64,000 bases of DNA from Gammaproteobacteria bacterium (GTDB taxonomy: Bacteria; Pseudomonadota; Gammaproteobacteria; GCA-001735895), in NCBI GenBank assembly GCA_022340305.1, contig JAJDOF010000124.1, forward strand, positions 6,396 through 70,395, given 5' to 3'. Shown piece by piece: positions 41,985 through 52,007 of the stretch. Within the stretch, counting starts at the first letter, position 1. Every line of letters starts with the position of its first letter. The notes under the pieces were generated by a model, which searched no databases, was not told the DNA's origin, and was given only the letters and a program-made list of their open reading frames with translations. The position numbers and the translations under genes are program-made.

Positions 41985-43349
41985 ATGTTTGAAAGTTTAA
42001 CCGACCGGCTTTCCCGAACCCTGAAAAACCTGCGTGGCCAGGGGCGTCTCAGCGAAGATAATATCCGCGACAGCCTGCGCGAAGTGCGCATGGCCTTGCT
42101 CGAGGCGGATGTGGCGCTGCCGGTGGTCAAGGACTTTATCGAGGCCGTGCGTGTCAAGGCGCTGGGCAAGGAAGTCATCTCCAGCCTGTCGCCTGGTCAG
42201 GCGCTGATCAAGGTGGTTAACGACGAGTTGGTCGCGATTATGGGTGAATCCCAGGAGACCATAGACCTCGATCGTAAACCGCCGGTCATCGTTTTGATGG
42301 CGGGTCTGCAGGGTGCGGGCAAGACTACCACCGTGGCCAAGCTGGCGCGCCGCTTGCGCGAGCTCAATAAGAAGTCGGTCATGGTTACCAGCACCGACGT
42401 CTACCGTCCGGCGGCAATCGAACAGCTGAGAACCCTGGCACAGGAAGTCGGCGTCGATTTCCATGCCAGTAACATCGAGCAAAAGCCGGTAGCGATCGCG
42501 CGCGAGGCTGTGGCCGCGGCGATTCGCACTGGCGCCGAGGTGCTGATCGTCGATACTGCGGGTCGGCTCGCTATCGATCAACAGATGATGGATGAGATCC
42601 GGGCAATTCACGAGGCCATCGACCCGGCCGAAACCCTGTTTGTAGTCGACAGCATGACTGGCCAGGATGCTGCCAATACTGCCAAGGTGTTTAACGACAC
42701 CTTGCCATTAACCGGCGTGGTGCTCACCAAGACCGATGGTGATGCGCGCGGTGGCGCGGCCCTGTCGGTACGTCATATTACCGGCAAGCCGATCAAGTTT
42801 ATCGGCTCGGGAGAAAAAACAGATGCACTCGAAGCTTTTCATCCGGATCGCATCGCCTCGCGTATTCTCGGCATGGGCGACATTCTGTCGCTGGTCGAGC
42901 AGGCCCAGGAACATGTCGATCAAGAGAAAGCTGAACGCCTGGCGCGCAAGGTTCGCAAGGGCCAGGGATTCGATCTCGAGGATTTACGCGATCAGTTCAC
43001 CCAGATGGAAAACATGGGTGGTCTGGGCAAGCTTGTCGACAAGTTACCCGGCATGGGATCCGGTGTTGCAGAAGCCATGCAGAATCCGGCACATAGCAAA
43101 CAGATGAAGCGCATGGTCGCGATCATCGACTCGATGACACCGCTGGAACGGCGTCGCCCGGAAGTCATTAACGGTTCGCGCAAGCGCCGCGTTGCGCAGG
43201 GATCGGGAACCCAGATTCAGGACGTCAATCGGCTGCTAAAGCAACATAAACAAATGCAGCGCATGATGAAGAAAATGGGCAGCAAGGGTGGAATGGCGAA
43301 CATGATGCGTGGTCTGAAGGGCAAGTTACCTCCCGGTATGTCGTTCTGA
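41985..43349 (+). CDS. ffh: Signal recognition particle protein
   Basis: GLQGAGKTTT, DTAGR, TKTDGDARGG, Met-rich M domain. Confidence 0.98.
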   Translation: MFESLTDRLSRTLKNLRGQGRLSEDNIRDSLREVRMALLEADVALPVVKDFIEAVRVKALGKEVISSLSPGQALIKVVNDELVAIMGESQETIDLDRKPPVIVLMAGLQGAGKTTTVAKLARRLRELNKKSVMVTSTDVYRPAAIEQLRTLAQEVGVDFHASNIEQKPVAIAREAVAAAIRTGAEVLIVDTAGRLAIDQQMMDEIRAIHEAIDPAETLFVVDSMTGQDAANTAKVFNDTLPLTGVVLTKTDGDARGGAALSVRHITGKPIKFIGSGEKTDALEAFHPDRIASRILGMGDILSLVEQAQEHVDQEKAERLARKVRKGQGFDLEDLRDQFTQMENMGGLGKLVDKLPGMGSGVAEAMQNPAHSKQMKRMVAIIDSMTPLERRRPEVINGSRKRRVAQGSGTQIQDVNRLLKQHKQMQRMMKKMGSKGGMANMMRGLKGKLPPGMSF

Positions 43350-43482
43350 TTATAGCGATTTGGTGCCGGCGCACGGATCGCCGGCTGCGCCCGCGATTGA
43401 CCGGATTTGCGTCATTCCTGCTAATTCCACCCCATAAAACCAGATTTCTCTGAATATCCCCTTAAATATCAGGCTTGCGGAC

Positions 43483-43510
43483 TTCACAGGCGGCTTTATT
43501 TAGGTACAAT
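43483..43510 (+). promoter_or_regulatory. Putative sigma70 promoter of rpsP operon
   Basis: TTCACA-N16-TACAAT. Confidence 0.55.
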
Positions 43511-43541
43511 ACGCGGTCTTCTGACCCCACGGTCAGCGTTA

Positions 43542-43704
43542 GCAGTCTGACGGACTTAGGAATAATCTACTGCGGCGGTGGGAAATCGGCCCATTTTCCC
43601 GATCTTTTTCGTTGCGCAGTTGCGACTATGCGCCGCAAAAGATCGAAAAAATGGGCGCGATTTCGAACGCGCCCCGCTACGATTCCCTCAGTCCGGCAGA
43701 CTGC
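43542..43704. mobile_element. Degenerate 163-bp MITE-like hairpin element
   Basis: Imperfect terminal IRs GCAGTCTG(a/c)CGGACT, further nested inverted segments (GAAATCG, GCCCATTTT, CGATCTTTT), TA at left flank only, non-coding. Confidence 0.7.
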
Positions 43705-43774
43705 CTGACTATTGCCTGATGGCTAAAAATCGATGATGAGTCGATTTGAGTCGACTTTTTTGTGGAGATTTTTT

Positions 43775-44026
43775 ATGGTTTCAATTCGATTGGCACGCGG
43801 TGGCTCCAAGAAGCGCCCGTTTTACCACGTTGTGGTAAGCGATAGCCGCAGCCCGAGAGATGGCCGCTACATTGAACGCATCGGTTTCTACAATCCCCAG
43901 GCCCGTGGCCAGGAACAGGAACTGCGTATCGATGATGGCCGTGTCGACTATTGGGTTTCTCAAGGTGCGCAACCCAGTGAACGAGTGGCTAACTTGATCA
44001 AGGGAGCTCGCAAGGCTGCGGCTTAA
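43775..44026 (+). CDS. rpsP: 30S ribosomal protein S16
   Basis: [27 protein letters not shown]. Confidence 0.98.
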
Positions 44027-44032
44027 GCAGGG

Positions 44033-44542
44033 ATGGACCAACACCAGGATGATTTAGTCTGTGTTGGGCATATCCTCGGGGCGCAGGGAATAAAGGGCTG
44101 GGTCAGGGTATTTTCCAATACCAGTCCGCGCGACAACATTGTAAATTACAGTCCCTGGATCATCGAGCAGGGAGATGAACGCAAAGCGGTGAGCATCACT
44201 GGACGCTCACAGGGTAAGAATGTTATTGCCAGGCTGGAAGGCTGCGAGGATCGCAGCGCGGCAGAAGCCCTGACAGGATGTCGGATTCTGATAAGTCCGG
44301 AGCAATTACCCGGTCTGCAAGCCGGCGAATATTACTGGTCCGACCTGATAGGTTTGCAGGTAGAGTCATTGCAGGGCGAAGCGCTTGGTGTGGTTGCGTC
44401 GATGATTGAGACCGGCGCGGATGATGTGATGGTACTGCAGGGAGATCGGGAGCGCCTGATACCGTTTGTGATCGATGACATCGTGCATGAAGTCGATCTT
44501 GAGCGAAAGCGTCTGGTGGTTGACTGGTTGCCCGATTATTAA
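44033..44542 (+). CDS. rimM: Ribosome maturation factor RimM
   Basis: [30 protein letters not shown]. Confidence 0.97.
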
Positions 44543-44543
44543 G

Positions 44544-45293
44544 ATGCGGATAGACGTTATCACCTTGTTTCCGCAGTTCGTGCAACAGGTGATCAGCTGT
44601 GGCGTCGTTGGTCGCGCCGCCGAGCAGGGTTTGCTCGAATTGCATTGCTGGAACCCGCGTGAATATACTGCGGACAGGCACCGAACGGTCGATGATCGGC
44701 CTTACGGTGGTGGTCCCGGGATGTTGATGAAGGTCGAGCCCTTGCAGGATGCAATCGGAGCGGTACGCGCAAAAAATCCGAATGCGCGCCTGGTGTATTT
44801 AAGCCCGCAGGGCAGGCTACTGAAGCAACGTATGCTGGCGGACCAGGCGGCACTGGGAACAGTGATTTTTTTATGCGGTCGCTACGAAGGCATCGATGAG
44901 CGATTGATCGAGCAGGAAGTGGATGAGGAGTGGTCGCTGGGTGACTACGTCATTAGCGGCGGCGAGTTGGCGGCAATGGTGTGTATCGATGCGATGACAC
45001 GGCTGTTGCCGGGAGCGCTGGGAGATGACGAATCGGCGCAACAGGATTCGTTTAGTGAGGGATTGCTGGACTGCCCGCACTATACCCGGCCCGAGGATTA
45101 TCGGGGTGATTGCGTGCCAGCGGTATTGATGAACGGTAATCACCGTGACATTAATGCCTGGCGCGAAAAGCAGGCGCTGGGACGCACCTGGCAGCGACGT
45201 CCTGACTTGTTGGAGGCAACCCGCCTGGATGACAGGCAGCAGGAGTTGCTGGATGAATACATTGCCGAGTTCGAGCGAACCCGGAAGCGATGA
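44544..45293 (+). CDS. trmD: tRNA (guanine-N1)-methyltransferase
   Basis: [32 protein letters not shown]; start moved to ATG 44544. Confidence 0.98.
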
Positions 45294-45331
45294 AGTGCAT
45301 CGCAACGAACACGATTTATTGAGGATTTAAA

Positions 45332-45676
45332 ATGAGCAACATAATTGCACAACTTGACGCGGAGAATATGAAGACTGATATTCCCGCTTTTTCTCCAGGG
45401 GACACCGTGGTCGTGCAAGTGCGCGTCCGTGAAGGCACGCGTGAGCGTTTGCAGGCTTACGAGGGTGTTGTTATCGCCAAGCGTAACCGCGGCATCAATT
45501 CCGCTTTTACAGTGCGCAAGATATCCCATGGTGAAGGTGTGGAACGTGTGTTCCAGACGCATAGCCCGCTGATCGCGGAGATCAATGTCAAACGCCGCGG
45601 CCGGGTTCGCCAGGCGAAGCTTTACTACCTGCGTGGACGCACCGGCAAAGCGGCGCGTATTCGGGAAAAGCTCTAA
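45332..45676 (+). CDS. rplS: 50S ribosomal protein L19
   Basis: [33 protein letters not shown]. Confidence 0.98.
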
Positions 45677-45704
45677 CCAGCCCGGTTGCGTAATTAGCCA
45701 GGCG

Positions 45705-45740
45705 AAAAGCGTGCCAGTTTTTGCTGCACGCTTTTTTTTT
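45705..45740 (+). terminator. Intrinsic terminator of rpsP operon
   Basis: AAAAGCGTGC / GCACGCTTTT stem with long T tract. Confidence 0.85.
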
Positions 45741-45760
45741 GAGGTTCAGTTTTTGTAGCC

Positions 45761-47542
45761 ATGTCTTTGCAGCGATATTCAGTATTAGCTCACAAGGTAC
45801 ATCTGGCAATATTGCTGGTCGCTGGTCTGGGCATGAGCCAACCTCTACTGGCTGACGAACGTCTCGATCTGCTGAAGAATATTTCGGCGGCGGGTGCGCC
45901 CCTGCTGACCTTGAAGATGCTCGACCAGGCGCAACCTGGAATCGACCAGAACCTGTACGAATGGATACTGTGGGAGCAGGAACGGCTGGAGATACTCACC
46001 CAGTGGCGACAATGGGATCAACTGTTAATTCGCATCGAGACTCTGCCGGCCGACATTCCCGATCAATTCAAACAACAGGTAGCGACCTTCAAGGCCAGGG
46101 CCTATCTCGAACTCAAGCAAACGGCAAGCGCACGCCAGGTATTACGCGAGCGCTTATGGCTTGATCTGGCGCAGGAATCCAGCAATTATGAGATCTGGCG
46201 TCGCCTGGTAATCGAAAGCTACATTGATGACGGCCGCACTGAAGATGCGCGTGTAGCAATGTTGCGTTTCGACCAGGACTTTGACACCACCGACCTGAGC
46301 TGGCTCTTGTTGCGCGCGCGCGTGCTGATCGAATCGGGTCGCTACCAACAGGCGGTTCGAGTTTTACAGGGGCGCGATGAATGGCAGGCCCGGCTGACCA
46401 GCATGCTGGCGAGTTTTCGACAGCAGCGTATCGATAAAGCTGAACTTTGGCGCCAGGTAAAAAAATACAGCGAAGATACCGGGCTTACTGGTGCAGAACG
46501 CAGCAGCCTGTGGGCGCTGGGTTATTTTGCCGCCCAGCAGATGTCGCCGGTGGACCGGGTGGTAGCGCTTGAATCACTATTTCGCAGTGAGCAAACGTCG
46601 CCGCTGAAATTGTTTCAGCTGCCGGTCGATTTACTCTGGGAAGCCTATGTCGAGTATGCCGAACTGGTTGGCAACCGCTCTGAAATCCTGCTCGGTGCCG
46701 ATGAAAAATGGCTCGAACTGGCAAGCTCTGCGAGCAAGTTGACCCCGGTTAAATCACGTGCGCTCTACGCCATGTTGATGTTGCGTTCCGCGGATCTGGA
46801 AGTCAGTAACCGGGCCGCCGCCGGTTACATGGAAACTTTCGCCGAAGTCGATGAAGCCGAGCGCAGGCTACTGGAAAACCTGTTTAATCACAGCCAGACT
46901 TTCTCCGATGCTCATAACATACCTGCAGGAATCCGTTTTCAACTGGTAGATCTGGCACTCAAGTCGGTCGATATCGAGGAGGCAACGCGGTTGATGTCGG
47001 GCCTTACGACAGTGCCGCCGGGTACTGCTCGACTCGACTGGCAATTGCGTCAATCGAGGGTGTTGATCCTGGGCGGCCGCTATGACGAGGGTAACCAGGT
47101 GTTGCAGGGCCTGATCGCCGAGTACCTCGAACCAAAACCCGAGTCGACTGATCGCATACTGCAGGTTTTGTTCGATCTGCAGACGGTTGGCCTGCATGCA
47201 CAGGCGATCGATCATTTCGGGCACCTGTTGCAACTCGACATCGACCCCAAACGTCGACGCGAGATTCTTTACTGGATCGGAGATTCTTATCGAGGCCTGG
47301 AAAAATATCAACAGGCCGCCTTGCTTTACTTGCAGTCGGCGATGATGCCGGCGCCGGATTCGATGGACCCCTGGGCACAGACTGCAAGATTCAACGCTGC
47401 TGAAAGCCTGCAACTCGCTGGGCTGGTCGATGATGCGCGGCGCATTTACCAGGCATTGCTGCAGATCGCCGAGGATCCCGCGCGCCGCTCGGTCTTGAGT
47501 CACAAGATTCAGCAACTTTGGTTAAATCAGGCCGCACAGTAA
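45761..47542 (+). CDS. Large exported helical-repeat (TPR-like) protein of unknown function
   Basis: 593-aa ORF, signal-like N terminus, TPR-like repeats ([22 protein letters not shown]; [26 protein letters not shown]). Confidence 0.75.
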
Positions 47543-47580
47543 GCCGGTTAGAGTCAGTACTTCGCAACCCGCCCGCAGGC

Positions 47581-47609
47581 CTTGAAAAACCGGGTATAAA
47601 ACCGCATAT
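47581..47609 (+). promoter_or_regulatory. sigma32 (RpoH) promoter of htpG
   Basis: CTTGAAA-N14-CCGCATAT versus consensus CTTGAAA...CCCCATNT. Confidence 0.75.
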
Positions 47610-47649
47610 AGTTTCGTTAAATCAACATTGTCAATGGAGACAACCAGAG

Positions 47650-49548
47650 ATGACAACTGCCAGTAATACTGAGACCCGCGGCTTCGAAACCGAAGTCAAT
47701 CAATTACTCGATTTGATGATTCACTCGCTTTACTCAAACAAGGATATTTTCCTGCGAGAGTTGATTTCAAATGCCTCCGATGCCTGCGATCGCCTGCGAT
47801 TCAATGCGATCTCAAACGCTGATCTTTATGAGCAGGATATCGAACTCAAGATTAAAGTTTCCTATGACGAGGAAAAGCGTACCGTCACCATTAGCGATAA
47901 CGGTATTGGCATGACGCGTGATGAAGTCATCGATCACATCGGTACCATTGCAAAGTCTGGAACCCGCGCCTTTTTCGATTCGATTACCGGTGACGAGAAG
48001 AAAGATGCGCGTCTTATCGGCCAGTTTGGTGTTGGATTTTACTCATCATTTATCGTTGCCGAGGAAGTCACCTTGCGTACGCGCAGGGCTGGCGAGGCTG
48101 CTGACCAGGGCGTCGAGTGGATATCCAAAGGCAAGGGTGAATACAGTATTGCATCGGTTGAAAAATCGACGCGCGGGACCGAGATTACCCTGCAATTGCG
48201 CGAAGGTGAGGACGAATACCTGAATGACTGGAAATTGCGCTCGATTATTACCGAATATTCTGATCACATCGGATTTCCGGTGATGATGGACAAGAAGATC
48301 GAAGCCGATGCGGATGAAGGCGAGACAGTTATCGAGGAAGAAACGGTCAACCAGGCCTCGGCGTTGTGGGCGCAGGAGCGTTCGGAGATCAAGGATGAAG
48401 AGTACATCGAATTTTACAAGCACGTTGCGCATGATTTCGAGGATCCCCTTTGCTGGAGCCATAATCGGGTCGAGGGCACCAATGAATACACCTCGCTACT
48501 CTACATTCCAGCGCGTGCGCCCTATGATTTATACGACCGTGAGTCGGCCCATGGCCTCAAACTCTACGTGCAGCGTGTATTCATCATGGAAGACGCGGAA
48601 AAGCTGATGCCGCGCTACCTGCGTTTCGTGCGCGGCCTGATCGATTCGAATGATCTACCGCTGAACGTATCGCGCGAAATGCTGCAAGGAAGCAAGGTCA
48701 TTGACAGTATTCGCAGTGGTTCGGTGAAGAAAGTCCTCGGCATGCTGGAAAAGATGGCGAAGAACGATCCGGAGAAGTATCAGAAATTCTGGACCGAGTT
48801 CGGACGGGTGCTGAAGGAAGGACCGGCTGAGGATTTCGCCAATCGTGACAAGATTGGCAAGCTGCTGCGTTTTGCTTCTACTCACAACGACGCCGCGGAT
48901 CAAACGGTTTCCCTGGATGATTACATCGGCCGGATGCAGGAAGGCCAGGACAAGATTTACTATGTCGCCGCGGATACCCACGCTGCAGCGAAGAGCAGCC
49001 CGCATCTCGAGATATTCCGCAAGAAAGGCATCGAGGTGCTATTGCTTTCGGATCGTGTCGACGAATGGTTGACCGCGCACTTGATGGAACATGAAGGCAA
49101 GAAACTGCAATCAGTCGCCAAGGGAGAGCTTGACCTGGGCGATGATGAGGCTTCCGAGAAGGAACTGGAAAAGAAGGCGAAGTCGGCAGAGAAGTTGCTA
49201 AAGCGCATGAAGAAATCGCTCGAAGACCGGGTCGCGGACGTGCGCGTGACTAATCGGTTAACCGATTCACCGGCGTGTATCGTGTTGAACGAGCAGGACA
49301 TGGCGATGCACATGCAACGCATACTCAAGGAAGCGGGGCACGAGATGCCGAGCACCAAACCGATACTTGAAATCAACCCGGATCATCCCATTGTGAAGCA
49401 AATGGATGGCGAAAAGTCGAAGAAGAAGTTTGACGACTGGTCTGCTATATTATTTGATCAAGCGCTGCTTGCTGAAGGCGGTCAACTCGAGGATCCGGCA
49501 GGTTTTGTTGCAAAACTTAACAAGATGTTGGTGGCCATTGCCCGATAA
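47650..49548 (+). CDS. htpG: Chaperone HtpG (Hsp90)
   Basis: [37 protein letters not shown]; start moved to ATG 47650. Confidence 0.98.
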
Positions 49549-49984
49549 CACGACGATAAGAAAATTCATCCGCCACCCGGTAGACATGCCGATCCAGGTG
49601 ACTAATAACTGGGTGGAGGATGAAAATGACGAGACTATCGACCAGACGATCACCAATGTCAGCCTCGGTGGCCTCGCCTTCATCTCACCAAAACCACTGG
49701 AAATTCTCGATCGCGTGCGGGTCTCTATTCCCGTTCTGGATCGTGACGACAGGCTGATCGGCAATGTCGTATGGTGTGAAAAATCGGCCAGCGGTAACGG
49801 TTATGAAATTGGAGTCGAGTTCGAAAAATCGCGGGATTTTTTCCGTTTGCGAATGATTGAACAAATTTGCCACATCGAACACTATCGCAGGGAGACCCTG
49901 CGTATTGAAGGTCGTAAGTTGAGCCCCCAGCAAGCCGCCAGCGAATGGATTGCGAAATACGCCGACGATTTTCCAGCACTTTAA
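49538..49984 (+). CDS. PilZ-domain protein
   Basis: RKFIR (RxxxR) and NVSLGG (NxSxxG) motifs; TTG start overlapping htpG end inferred. Confidence 0.85.
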
Positions 49985-49987
49985 TTT

Positions 49988-50992
49988 GTGGACAAAAAGC
50001 CTTCAGTCGCCATCATCGGTGCCGGACTGGCGGGCCTTACCTGCGGTACTGCGCTGCAGGGGATGGTCGACAACATCCGTATATTCGAGAAGAGCATTTT
50101 CGCTGGCGGGCGTATCGGGCGTTTTCGTGCCGGGGAGTATGAGTTCAACCATGGCGCACAATATTTCACTGTCAATAACTCCTTGTTCTGGAATATCGTT
50201 TCCGCCTGGCAAAGTGAAGGCGTAGTCCGGCCCTGGGACGGCTGGATCGTCGAATTGCAAAAGGGGCAGATCATCAACAGTGATATGTCGACTCAACGAT
50301 TTGTGGGCGTGCCGCGCATGCTGGAAATCGTCGAAAACCTGGCCAGGCGCTGTGACTTGGTGACTTCGGTAAACATCGCCGAGCTGGAACATCAGGAATC
50401 CGGCGGCTGGCGTCTGTTCAATCAAAGGGGTGATTACCAGGGGTTGTTCGACATCGTAATCGTCGCCACAGCCGCGCACCAGGCAGCCGAACTTTGCCGG
50501 CCCGTGAAAAGGATTAGTAAGGCGGCGGCCAATGTCGACATGACGGTTTGCTGGAGTGCGATGTTCGCTTTCGAGCGTAGGCTCGATCTGCCTTACGATG
50601 CCGCTTTCGTGCTGGATTCACCGTTGTCCTGGATTTCGCGCTACCAATATGCCGAGCCTGGACACGATGTCGATTGCTGGGTTTTGCATGCTACGCCGGA
50701 ATGGTCTCAACAATACGTCGCCAGTTTTCGCGGAAGAGTAATGAATGCCTTGCTGGATGCCTTCTGGGAAGCGACCGATATCGCCGTAGCTAAACCCCTG
50801 TCTGCGTCGGTACATTGCTGGAAACACGCGCAGCCGATTAACCCGATTGGCGAAGACTCACTGTTTGATGAAGCAAAGGCGCTCGGTGCCTGTGGTGACT
50901 GGTGCACAGCCCCACGTATCGAGGGTGCGGTATTGAGTGGATTTTCAATGGCGGACCGGGTGATGAAATACGTGCGTAAAAAATATGCCTGA
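49988..50992 (+). CDS. Renalase-like FAD/NAD(P)-dependent oxidoreductase
   Basis: IIGAGLAGL, FNHGAQYFT, HCWKHAQP, GACGDWC, IEGAVLSG. Confidence 0.9.
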   Translation: MDKKPSVAIIGAGLAGLTCGTALQGMVDNIRIFEKSIFAGGRIGRFRAGEYEFNHGAQYFTVNNSLFWNIVSAWQSEGVVRPWDGWIVELQKGQIINSDMSTQRFVGVPRMLEIVENLARRCDLVTSVNIAELEHQESGGWRLFNQRGDYQGLFDIVIVATAAHQAAELCRPVKRISKAAANVDMTVCWSAMFAFERRLDLPYDAAFVLDSPLSWISRYQYAEPGHDVDCWVLHATPEWSQQYVASFRGRVMNALLDAFWEATDIAVAKPLSASVHCWKHAQPINPIGEDSLFDEAKALGACGDWCTAPRIEGAVLSGFSMADRVMKYVRKKYA

Positions 50993-51016
50993 AGCGTTGC
51001 TAGCGCTGCGGTTACC

Positions 51017-51403
51017 ATGAACGAGGAAAATGTTCGACTCGACAAGTGGCTGTGGGCCGCGCGATTCTTCAAGACCCGGGCGCTGGCCGCCGGCGCGGTG
51101 AGCACTGGCAAGGTTCATTCTGGTGGCCAGCCCGTGAAGCCCTCGCGCGGAGTCAAAATTGACGACTGTTACGAAATTCGACGCGGTTACGAAAACTTTG
51201 AGATTGTAGTCAAGGCGCTCAGTGAACACCGGGGTTCGGCGACGACGGCACAGTTGTTGTACCGTGAAACCGAGAGCAGCGTCACCAGGCGCAAAGGCGA
51301 AGCCGAGAAGCGCAAGCTGGCGATGATGGCGCGCCCGCAGTCTGTGGGACGACCCGATAAAAAACAGCGCCGCCAGATTCGGCGCTTTATTGATAAGCCA
51401 TAA
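51017..51403 (+). CDS. hslR: Heat shock protein 15 (S4 domain)
   Basis: VRLDKWLWAARFFKTRALA, RPDKKQRRQ. Confidence 0.95.
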   Translation: MNEENVRLDKWLWAARFFKTRALAAGAVSTGKVHSGGQPVKPSRGVKIDDCYEIRRGYENFEIVVKALSEHRGSATTAQLLYRETESSVTRRKGEAEKRKLAMMARPQSVGRPDKKQRRQIRRFIDKP

Positions 51404-51440
51404 CCGGGCGTATGCGGCGGACCATGGCAAGGCCATCGCC

Positions 51441-52007
51441 ATGAACAGAGTATTTGTTTACGGCACACTAACCCGCATATCTCACCGAATTCCTCGGCAA
51501 TTGCTCCTGCATTGCTCTACCTCCGGCATCCCTGCAGTCGTACTGCGGGCGTCGTAAAGCGCACTGTGACGGGCTGTACTCCCGACGGCCGGCTTGACCT
51601 AGTGTCGACTACACGCTGCACCGACCGCTGGTCCGTGCCGCACGCCACAGCGTCTTTACGACGCCCTCGCTACGTAAATCGGTGAGATATGCGGGTTAAA
51701 GCGCGGCCAGGGTAATTCCCATTACCTTCAGACCGCGGAATTCGTCGGCACATTCAGCACCGAGTCGGTTTTCTCGATGTACGCCTTCGACGACTATCCC
51801 GCGCTATGCGAACAGGGTTGTCACGCGATTCATGGCGAAATTTATCATGTCAGCGATATCCCGTTTCGTTTGCTGGACGAACTCGAATGGTACCCGGATT
51901 TTTATCAGCGAATCGTAATCCCCACTCGGTACGGCGATGCCTGGATGTATATCGTCAAGGCTGCATTGTGTCACGGGAGACCATTGCTCCCGGGTAGCTG
52001 GCCCTGA
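51441..52007 (+). pseudogene. Gamma-glutamylcyclotransferase (YtfP/AIG2-like) gene interrupted by a MITE
   Basis: MNRVFVYGTL (51441-51470) resumes as KRGQGNSHYL...HGEIY...LDELEWYP from 51699; insertion carries in-frame TAA at 51555-51557. Confidence 0.92.
51471..51696. mobile_element. 226-bp MITE with 18-bp perfect terminal inverted repeats and TA target duplication
   Basis: ACCCGCATATCTCACCGA ... TCGGTGAGATATGCGGGT, flanked by TA (51469-70, 51697-98); internal 13-bp perfect IR 51547-59/51654-66. Confidence 0.92.

Follow-up and report, generated by a model that had tools for sequence, protein, structure and literature searches.

Two hairpin transposable elements with unrelated terminal repeats share a conserved interior core

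The window analysed here is a 64,000-nucleotide stretch of a Gammaproteobacteria bacterium (GenBank assembly GCA_022340305.1, contig JAJDOF010000124.1, positions 6,396 to 70,395 of the forward strand). [quoted passage not shown] Each is a long hairpin carrying the same left, apex and right motifs, and comparison with copies in other genomes showed that the stems covary and that the family is widely distributed. Element 1 belongs to a branch termed type A (family F1 in the source genome) and element 2 to a branch termed type B (family F2). We hold it very probable that both are MITEs of one superfamily. Their general features are those of MITEs: lengths of 161 and 226 nt, repeats of 18–19 nt at 89–96% complementarity, no conserved open reading frame, a target duplication or empty sites, and multiple dispersed copies.

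It is usual to sort MITEs, and to assign transposases to them, by terminal repeat, with the interior regarded as filler. In this family it is the interior, with its asymmetric loop and apex, that is conserved from Gammaproteobacteria to Myxococcota, Acidobacteriota and Planctomycetota, and the ends differ in sequence and, on a TA versus CTAG reading, in duplication type. The account we favor, and consider likely as a whole, is that these are non-autonomous MITEs that go back to a single ancient hairpin-core family and depend on DDE transposases acting in trans. A common ancestral family would have given rise to the type A and type B branches, and the transposases would recognize the terminal inverted repeats of both. 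Element 1 has IS1182-family ends and lands in CTAG, with a duplication that the literature reads as 4 bp; element 2 carries the same core between unrelated ends and duplicates TA. The three motifs are homologous parts of a 110–135-nt palindrome at the DNA level, with an invariant asymmetric loop and a conserved apex. Selection at the level of the element may maintain this core, perhaps through a contribution to synapsis or to cruciform or hairpin formation in transposition, rather than for a host function. If the core aids mobility, it offers a handle on how elements of about one persistence length join their two ends and on how non-autonomous elements switch transposase partners. The family is also abundant, breaks assemblies, splits genes (GGACT) and sits in operon leaders (rpsP), and a model of it would improve annotation.

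Shared motifs and hairpin architecture

The first, sequence-only reading of the window reported three motifs common to both elements in the same orientation, and all three were confirmed at their positions. TACTGCG starts at 43568 and 51541, the apex motif at 43623 (CGACTATGCGCCGC) and 51606 (CGACTACACGCTGC), and CGCTACG at 43675 and 51668, ending 22 nt before the right end of each element. The family signatures are CT[A/G]CTGCGG on the left and CC(C)TCGC[T/G]ACG on the right. The source genome (assembly code G000, 4.35 Mb, 169 contigs, 86% complete; the window is C141:6396-70395) was searched for CT[AG]CTGCG followed within 30–300 nt by CTCGC[TGA]ACG, with complementary outer flanks. This search returned 15 left-then-right pairs, compared with 0–1 in each of four controls in which the motifs were reversed, swapped or symmetric; symmetric left-left and right-right arrangements numbered zero. 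The pairs include further end types (C57:38096-38222, C52:2972-3082, C36/C111). Among 401 evenly drawn Gammaproteobacteria, the pattern CTRCTGCGG-N90-120-CCTCGCKACG matched in 41 genomes of 33 genera, and the reversed pattern gave about 9 matches in total. Copies per genome reach 142, with 64, 58, 29 and 23 in others.

A chance or convergent resemblance of two unrelated MITE families would suit the unrelated terminal repeats and an exact 14-nt apex match that is private to the two copies. The control counts (0–1 against 15, and about 9 against hundreds of matches) refute it, and the two types agree in the order and spacing of the motifs, in the geometry of the internal loop and in the apex; we give this explanation practically no credence.

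Alignments of 28 type A (A1) and 24 type B (A2) elements were collected by the left/right pattern, so the invariance of their motif columns is circular and proves nothing. Motif-blind samples were therefore added, namely the apex columns, type A elements selected by their ends, and F2 copies found by nhmmer. The apex was never used for selection, and its mean column identity is 0.90 in type A and 0.77 in type B, against 0.70 and 0.56 for the stems. End-selected type A elements (GAGCCTGTCSGA-N122-150-TCSGACAGGCTC) came from 22 genomes, with zero control matches. By our count, the exact left 8-mer CT[AG]CTGCG was present in 42 of 58 left ends and the exact right 9-mer CGT[A/C]GCGAG in 44 of 61 right ends, most others being one base off, and the apex was present in nearly all copies. 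One genome, G108, holds a divergent 21-copy type A subfamily with CGGCTGCAA and CGAAGCGAA. The 29 F2 copies that nhmmer found in the source genome retain, with one mismatch allowed, the left motif in 18 cases and the right motif in 16. The apex as first described stood only in part. In the source genome its exact 14-nt pattern is absent from every other F1 and F2 copy, and what is conserved is a looser form, RTAG, a 5–6-nt loop, CTAY, then (N)CGCC. The exact match between the two elements is a coincidence on top of this conserved looser apex.

Counting the 41 pattern-bearing genomes and eight end-selected genomes lacking an exact left/right pair, at least 49 of the 401 genomes (12%) carry the family. 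A collection-wide scan used a weakened pattern that mostly returned chance matches in GC-rich genomes, with true elements at only 16 of 120 loci. These true elements occur in Anaeromyxobacteraceae, Myxococcales, Thermoanaerobaculia, Sulfomarinibacteraceae and Planctomycetota, in a Spirochaetales metagenome-assembled genome (MAG), Riflebacteria, Rhodocyclaceae and a Polaribacter MAG, and, within the Gammaproteobacteria, in Endozoicomonas ascidiicola, Ca. Sororendozoicomonas and Steroidobacteraceae. Phyla with elements besides Pseudomonadota include Myxococcota, Acidobacteriota and Planctomycetota.

The two types differ in span. Type A, which includes element 1, has 113–116 nt from left to right motif and about 159 nt in all between CTAG flanks; its ends are GAGCCTGTCGGACTTAGG or GAGCCTGTCCGAGAATAG (GAGCCTGTC-type) and its apex is TTCGTTAAATAG-N5-CTATTCGCCTC. 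Type B, which includes element 2 and the C57 copy, has a span of 130–137 nt, is always flanked by TA and has at least eight unrelated ends, among them GCCCGCATATCTCACC, TCCTAAATTCCGCAGTTGA, ACCCGGATTATCCATTAG and AGCACTCCCTGTTCACCAG. Whatever the end sequence, the terminus lies 22–23 nt from the left motif in type B and 24–25 nt in type A.

Folded as single-stranded DNA, both elements form strong hairpins (element 1, −49 kcal/mol, z = −8.7; element 2, −62.2 kcal/mol, z = −7.5, each versus shuffled sequence). RNAalifold returned a single long hairpin for each type, with 57 pairs in the 28 type A sequences and 52 pairs in the 24 type B sequences; compensatory double changes were found at 44 of the 57 and 45 of the 52. 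Pairing covers 92.7% of cells for type A; none of 500 shuffles reached any of the measures, and slid controls gave 36–47%. Fixed motifs on covarying stems were the pattern that the sequence-only reading proposed to look for, and the data bear it out: stems and terminal repeats vary with compensatory changes, and the motifs are kept in the motif-blind samples. Its broader proposal, that the identity of the superfamily lies in the core rather than in the terminal repeats, agrees with unrelated ends on a common core whose constant features are the three motifs and the way the hairpin is built. Where the left and right motifs pair, types A and B have one and the same junction: an invariant C-G comes first, followed by an internal loop of 4x3 (TRCT facing KAC), then G-C, C-G, G-C and G.T. 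The CT bulge described earlier for both elements is this same unpaired region; drawn as a bulge, it is an alternative rendering of the 4x3 internal loop. Unpaired and mismatched positions of type A are pyrimidine-rich on the top strand (44 versus 14), with repeated GCCTC/CCTY bulges in the right arm.

Among variable pairs, with the invariant G.T excluded, G.T and A.C mismatches amount to about 2% versus 4% in type A and 4% versus 5% in type B, so the wobble tolerance expected of RNA is absent on both strands. Relative to co-directional flanking genes, 10 elements lie in the same and 9 in the opposite orientation. The lack of a G.T excess, together with the lack of an orientation bias, indicates a palindrome at the DNA level. 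A core acting as a functional RNA (a small RNA, terminator or stabilizer) or as a host-factor site, kept by host-level selection, is very improbable. Such a role would account for sequence islands conserved across phyla, for placement mostly downstream of genes (14 elements between convergent genes versus 2 between divergent ones) and for the position of element 1 in the rpsP operon leader; effects on transcripts were proposed by the authors of MITEPye1 (PMC11578231), a MITE discussed below. Set against these points are the even orientation count, the G.U pairs that are not in excess over A.C on either strand, up to 142 copies per genome, and insertions that disrupt genes. Rfam 15 gave no match in the window at the gathering score, and up to E 10 only spurious microRNA-like hairpin matches.

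Terminal repeats and candidate transposases

The sequence-only reading considered the mobilizing enzyme unknown; for type A, the ends now point to the IS1182 family. When 22 copy-rich genomes were searched with the NF033551 profile, eight of them, the source genome included, gave strong IS1182 transposases. A complete IS1182 element in genome G339 (contig C666) has GAGCCTGTCCGAGAAC...GTTCTCGGACAGCCAC between two CTAG copies, and another in G177 (C104) begins with GAGGCTGTCCGAGAA and likewise lies between CTAG copies. The ends of both, of the form GAGCCTGTCCGAGAA, match those of type A2 MITEs, with identity over 15–16 nt, and the G177 ends match a MITE variant of G339. At the genome level, with IS1182 presence scored at E <= 1e-40 and a one-sided Fisher test, IS1182 was present in 16 of 41 carriers versus 33 of 360 non-carriers (401 genomes; odds ratio 6.3, p = 2.5e-6). 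The figure for type A carriers was 9 of 23 (p = 6e-4); for carriers of type B only it was 2 of 9, which is not significant. Type A flanks are overwhelmingly CTAG...CTAG, which is palindromic, so that 4-bp and 2-bp duplication readings are indistinguishable. Type A ends are identical to IS1182 ends over the stretch given and type A co-occurs with IS1182; judged from these findings, an IS1182 transposase probably moves type A. A candidate IS1182 end in G332 that resembles the type A1 end was rejected because it is not at an insertion sequence (IS) boundary.

The IS1182 transposase of the source genome (C92:7239-8591) contains one in-frame TAG. Frames of 481 aa with a single in-frame stop recur, with TAG in this copy and in G339:C37 and TAA in G083:C18; the stop could reflect a pseudogene, a two-ORF organization or read-through.

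Element 1 appears to be of a recently described kind. MITEPye1 of Paracoccus yeei (ISfinder; Front Microbiol 2024) is 159 bp long, with 18-bp terminal repeats like those of ISPye18 (IS1182), 4-bp direct repeats and a predicted long stem-loop; it is non-coding, intergenic, present in 1–3 copies per chromosome of one alphaproteobacterial species, and was attributed to IS1182 (PMC11578231). Type A is in the same length class (159–161 bp between CTAG flanks) and has IS1182-type ends, and the published features agree with it, the direct repeats on the 4-bp reading of the CTAG flanks. That MITEPye1 is a type A element is suggested by its published length, repeats and duplication, a comparison of descriptions rather than of sequences. 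The MITEPye1 paper reports neither the left, apex and right motifs nor a cross-phylum distribution nor a sister branch with other ends (PMC11578231).

For type B no such partner emerged. Earlier, the alternative to a superfamily had been that each family belongs to its own IS630-type transposon with matching ends; in spirit this holds for type A, with IS1182 in place of IS630, and it does not hold for type B. The source genome has no DDE_3 domain, and the ends of IS630 elements in same-genus genomes differ from F2. IS630, to which the TA duplication and the CTAG context had first pointed, was rejected as a general partner: in G005, G022, G165, G339 and G332 the IS630 ends are different ones, and one IS630 clade tested for co-occurrence gave no significant result (p = 0.10). 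A locus in G267 (C15:14155-18096) looked like an autonomous copy, with an end and left motif, an IS630 transposase, then a right motif and end. It is an IS630 nested at TA inside a type B MITE, with a 345-aa transposase and its own ends (TA, then TTGATCCGGCCAGTTGAAG). The same IS630 with its own ends occurs in G055 (90% identity) and G219 (75%) outside any MITE flanks, and the G267 locus is therefore not an autonomous element. A partial link comes from G267 and from G071, a five-contig genome with about 130 MITE copies and 35 IS630 copies. There the resident IS630 ends and the local type B ends share only a 9–12-nt core (GCAGTTGAA/GCAGTTGGA), and this link concerns AT-rich type B subfamilies. 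An IS630/Tc1-like enzyme is our leading guess for type B, held tentatively and at somewhat less than even chances. A search of the source genome for left-to-right pairs 0.3–4 kb apart found only a tandem MITE array. At C123:6733-7176 there is a head-to-tail tandem of 2.5 F2 elements, which has a period of 181 nt and units that adjoin at their terminal repeats.

Several observations weigh against transposition in trans through the ends as a full account. Among the 41 element-bearing genomes, 25 are without a strong IS1182 match, and none of the IS1182 elements found has precisely the A1 end GAGCCTGTCGGACTTAGG, the type A variant to which element 1 belongs. The IS1182 elements of G339 and G177 have neither the left nor the right motif beside their repeats, so the core is not a simple deletion remnant of those elements. 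Searches of the source genome, its genus and the sampled class found no autonomous element that has type B ends, and 10 of 15 copy-rich genomes have no IS630 DDE domain, including G128 with its 29 near-identical copies. Recognition of the ends would not by itself account for the constant distance of 22–25 nt from terminus to left motif, kept despite unrelated ends, or for the strongly conserved asymmetric loop. The type A assignment is also affected to the extent that the identity with MITEPye1 depends on descriptions.

Roles for the folded core and comparison with known systems

Two further readings give the core a larger part. In one, which we think unlikely, the core is a functional module that a host factor or the machinery of transposition reads in folded DNA, as a cruciform or single strand, and that has repeatedly been re-fitted with different transposon ends, here IS1182-type (CTAG) ends and those of at least one TA-duplicating family; the core and not the ends would then set evolutionary success. 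In the other, some enzyme, possibly a transposase that works on folded DNA, reads the loop and apex of the extruded or single-stranded hairpin and cuts at a fixed distance, so that the ends are merely a variable outer stem, as in integron attC sites or IS200/IS605 ends. The spacing fits this second reading, with the left motif 22–23 nt from TA across at least eight unrelated type B ends and 24–25 nt from the terminus in type A, as do compensatory changes at 14 of 17 outer-stem pairs, a polar asymmetry in which left-left and right-right elements are essentially never seen (one chimeric exception), the ratio of pyrimidine-pyrimidine to purine-purine mismatches on the type A top strand (44 to 14), and the lack of a transposase matched to type B. 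It is countered by type A ends identical to those of complete IS1182 elements that have no core, by the significant IS1182 co-occurrence, by several diverged derivatives that have lost the right motif and apex, and by clear target duplications (TA or 4-bp CTAG-type), which HUH single-strand transposition does not make. Five RAYT loci without the motifs also stand against it, and we regard it as distinctly improbable. The chimeric exception, G205:C12:10936-11094, is a type A copy with the right-end motif (CGTAGCGAGG) at both ends, a rare symmetric form in an otherwise polar family.

Five diverged F2 forms of 50–57 nt in the source genome consist of the two ends and the left motif only, and by eye their deletion junction (..GCCGT/AAATCGG..) is apparently the same; G071 has several 44-nt mini-forms. 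A shared junction in diverged sequences suggests that the short forms spread after the deletion, in which case an element could do without the right motif and apex. The short forms argue against purely core-based recognition and are compatible with a quantitative role of the core.

The RAYT loci of the source genome are five genes with a Y1_Tnp domain (C131:13169-13498, C131:45945-46271, C126:12772-13098, C156:4769-5089 and C7:5009-5335). Their flanks have no F1 or F2 match and neither the left nor the right motif, and a RAYT/HUH partner was rejected. Beside the C156 gene lies another, REP-like repeat, about 40 nt long, with further copies on C77, C84, C72 and C146.

Recognition in the manner of integron attC sites or HUH enzymes, suggested by the sequence-only reading, is not supported: type A ends are IS1182 ends, end-only derivatives exist, the RAYT loci lack the motifs, and there are no cassette arrays. 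The attC sites are likewise imperfect palindromes of variable sequence with a conserved structure and a few unpaired bases, but they lie in cassette arrays beside an integrase, have RYYYAAC/GTTRRRY boxes and make no target duplication, whereas copies here are dispersed on many contigs. No GTTRRRY-type R/L boxes were found in element 1 or element 2. The REP/REPIN-RAYT systems are also abundant extragenic palindromes, with GTAG/CTAC at the hairpin foot, and the motifs here contain CTAC; they differ as 20–40-nt hairpins that flank a RAYT gene and have no target duplication.

Much like type B are the Correia/NEMIS elements of Neisseria, hairpin MITEs of 100–160 bp with repeats of about 25 bp, TA duplication, high copy number, a functional interior and no identified transposase. 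Their repeat and interior sequences are unrelated to those of type B, they are confined to Neisseria, and the interior is an integration host factor site with promoters rather than a loop and apex. The IS630/Tc1-mariner MITEs (RUP, ERIC; PMC2229807) share TA duplication and a preference for CTAG/YTAR context and, as proposed here for type B, owe their mobility to a DDE transposase binding the repeats in trans, but for F2 no IS630 with matching ends was found. A BLAST search with type A against ERIC-bearing E. coli genomes gave no match. YPAL/RU-2 (168 bp) was set aside, since TA ends are absent from it and its duplication varies, and a link of Thiomargarita MITEs to these elements could not be established. 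A plasmid search returned one weak match to type A and none to type B. Our literature search found no paper containing the motif or end sequences, and no published description of the element 2 branch, with its different ends and different duplication.

Insertion sites and additional features

Table 1. Positions in the window of the two elements, their parts and their flanks
Feature	Position	Strand	Description
Element 1	43543..43703	+	Type A hairpin MITE, 161 nt, family F1, MITEPye1-like, IS1182-type ends
Element 1 left flank TTAG	43539..43542	+	Presumed left copy of the 4-bp target duplication (or T + TA on the 2-bp reading)
Element 1 right flank CCTG	43704..43707	+	Putative decayed copy of the target duplication, from length bookkeeping against empty sites
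Element 1 left terminal inverted repeat CAGTCTGACGGACTTAGG	43543..43560	+	89% complementary to 43686-43704; family consensus GAGCCTGTCGGACTTAGG
Element 1 right terminal inverted repeat	43686..43703	+	Repeat-pair search
Element 1 left core motif CTACTGCGG	43567..43575	+	
Element 1 apex CGTTGCGCAG-TTGCGA-CTATGCGCCGC	43610..43638	+	Corresponds to family apex CGTTAAATAG-N5-CTATTCGCCTC; alignment A1
Element 1 right core motif CCCCGCTACG	43672..43681	+	Family form CCTCGCTACG, one change in this copy
Element 2	51471..51696	+	Type B hairpin MITE, 226 nt, family F2, inside a GGACT (gamma-glutamylcyclotransferase-like) gene
Element 2 left TA of target-site duplication	51469..51470	+	Removal of 51471-51698 restores the frame VFVYGTLKRG
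Element 2 right TA of target-site duplication	51697..51698	+	
Element 2 left terminal inverted repeat ACCCGCATATCTCACCGA	51471..51488	+	96% complementary; repeat-pair search
Element 2 right terminal inverted repeat	51679..51696	+	Repeat-pair search
Extra 49-nt module, left repeat to left motif	51489..51537	+	In a minority of F2 copies, e.g. C104:1392, C149:4845, C78:26388
Element 2 left core motif GTACTGCGG	51540..51548	+	Family form CT[A/G]CTGCGG
Element 2 apex CCTAG-TGTCGA-CTACACGCTGC	51598..51620	+	Type B family apex CGTAG-TGTCRG-CTACGCCTTCG; alignment A2 and RNAalifold
Element 2 right core motif CCCTCGCTACG	51664..51674	+	
GGACT/AIG2-like gene split by element 2	51441..52007	+	Halves 51441-51470 and 51699-52007

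Element 2 lies inside a GGACT gene (Table 1). With 51471-51698 deleted, the joined GGACT halves encode a 112-aa protein with a canonical VFVYGTLKRG start and a PF06094 match (E = 9.6e-21). Because the deletion restores the protein, element 2 is a recent insertion that duplicated TA. By nhmmer, the source genome has about 35 F2 loci. In five of six informative copies, read by eye, the flanks fit TA plus a complementary terminal base and not a 4-bp direct repeat. The F2 end sequence has 146, 28 and 13 matches in three same-genus genomes and 0 in about 20 others, a pattern of lineage-specific bursts.

Element 1 is situated past the end of ffh (41985-43349) and ahead of the rpsP start codon (43775). 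Its site is empty in all ten same-genus loci aligned, where it reads GCG-NNNN-ACT, and the filled site equals the empty site plus 161 and 4 nt. The two flanks differ from each other (TTAG left, CCTG right), and the end of element 1, CAGTCTGACGGAC, has 10 of 13 positions in common with the type A consensus GAGCCTGTCGGAC. About seven F1 loci were found in the source genome, again by nhmmer, and element 1 can be aligned with type A elements from 27 other genomes. In window segments 43470-43541 and 43704-43777, element 1 divides a promoter-like stretch conserved in the genus (TTTATTTAGGTACAATACGCGG...) from the rpsP start codon. The leader of the rpsP-rimM-trmD-rplS operon thereby gains a hairpin of about 160 nt, which is absent from the ten aligned loci.

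Two other repeats accompany the family in the source genome. The pair at C52:2972-3082 represents a third hairpin type that also has the left and right motifs. In the apex of this type sits an IS110-family IS (346-aa transposase; PF01548 and PF02371), found outside the window at C92:1948-3420, C124:9565-10962 and C52:3127-3502. Its boundary reads ...AACTCC/GCTTTG..., and in C52 a copy of a 33-nt apex-left sequence adjoins the IS. Several F2-end variants contain another GC-rich hairpin repeat, GTCATCCCCGCG(G/A)AAGCGGGGA(C/T)CTTG (C92:17126-17300, C56:57400-57562, C149:4845-5100 and C80:49700-49903), which we take to resemble the Neisseria dRS3/NIME repeat ATTCCC-N8-GGGAAT.

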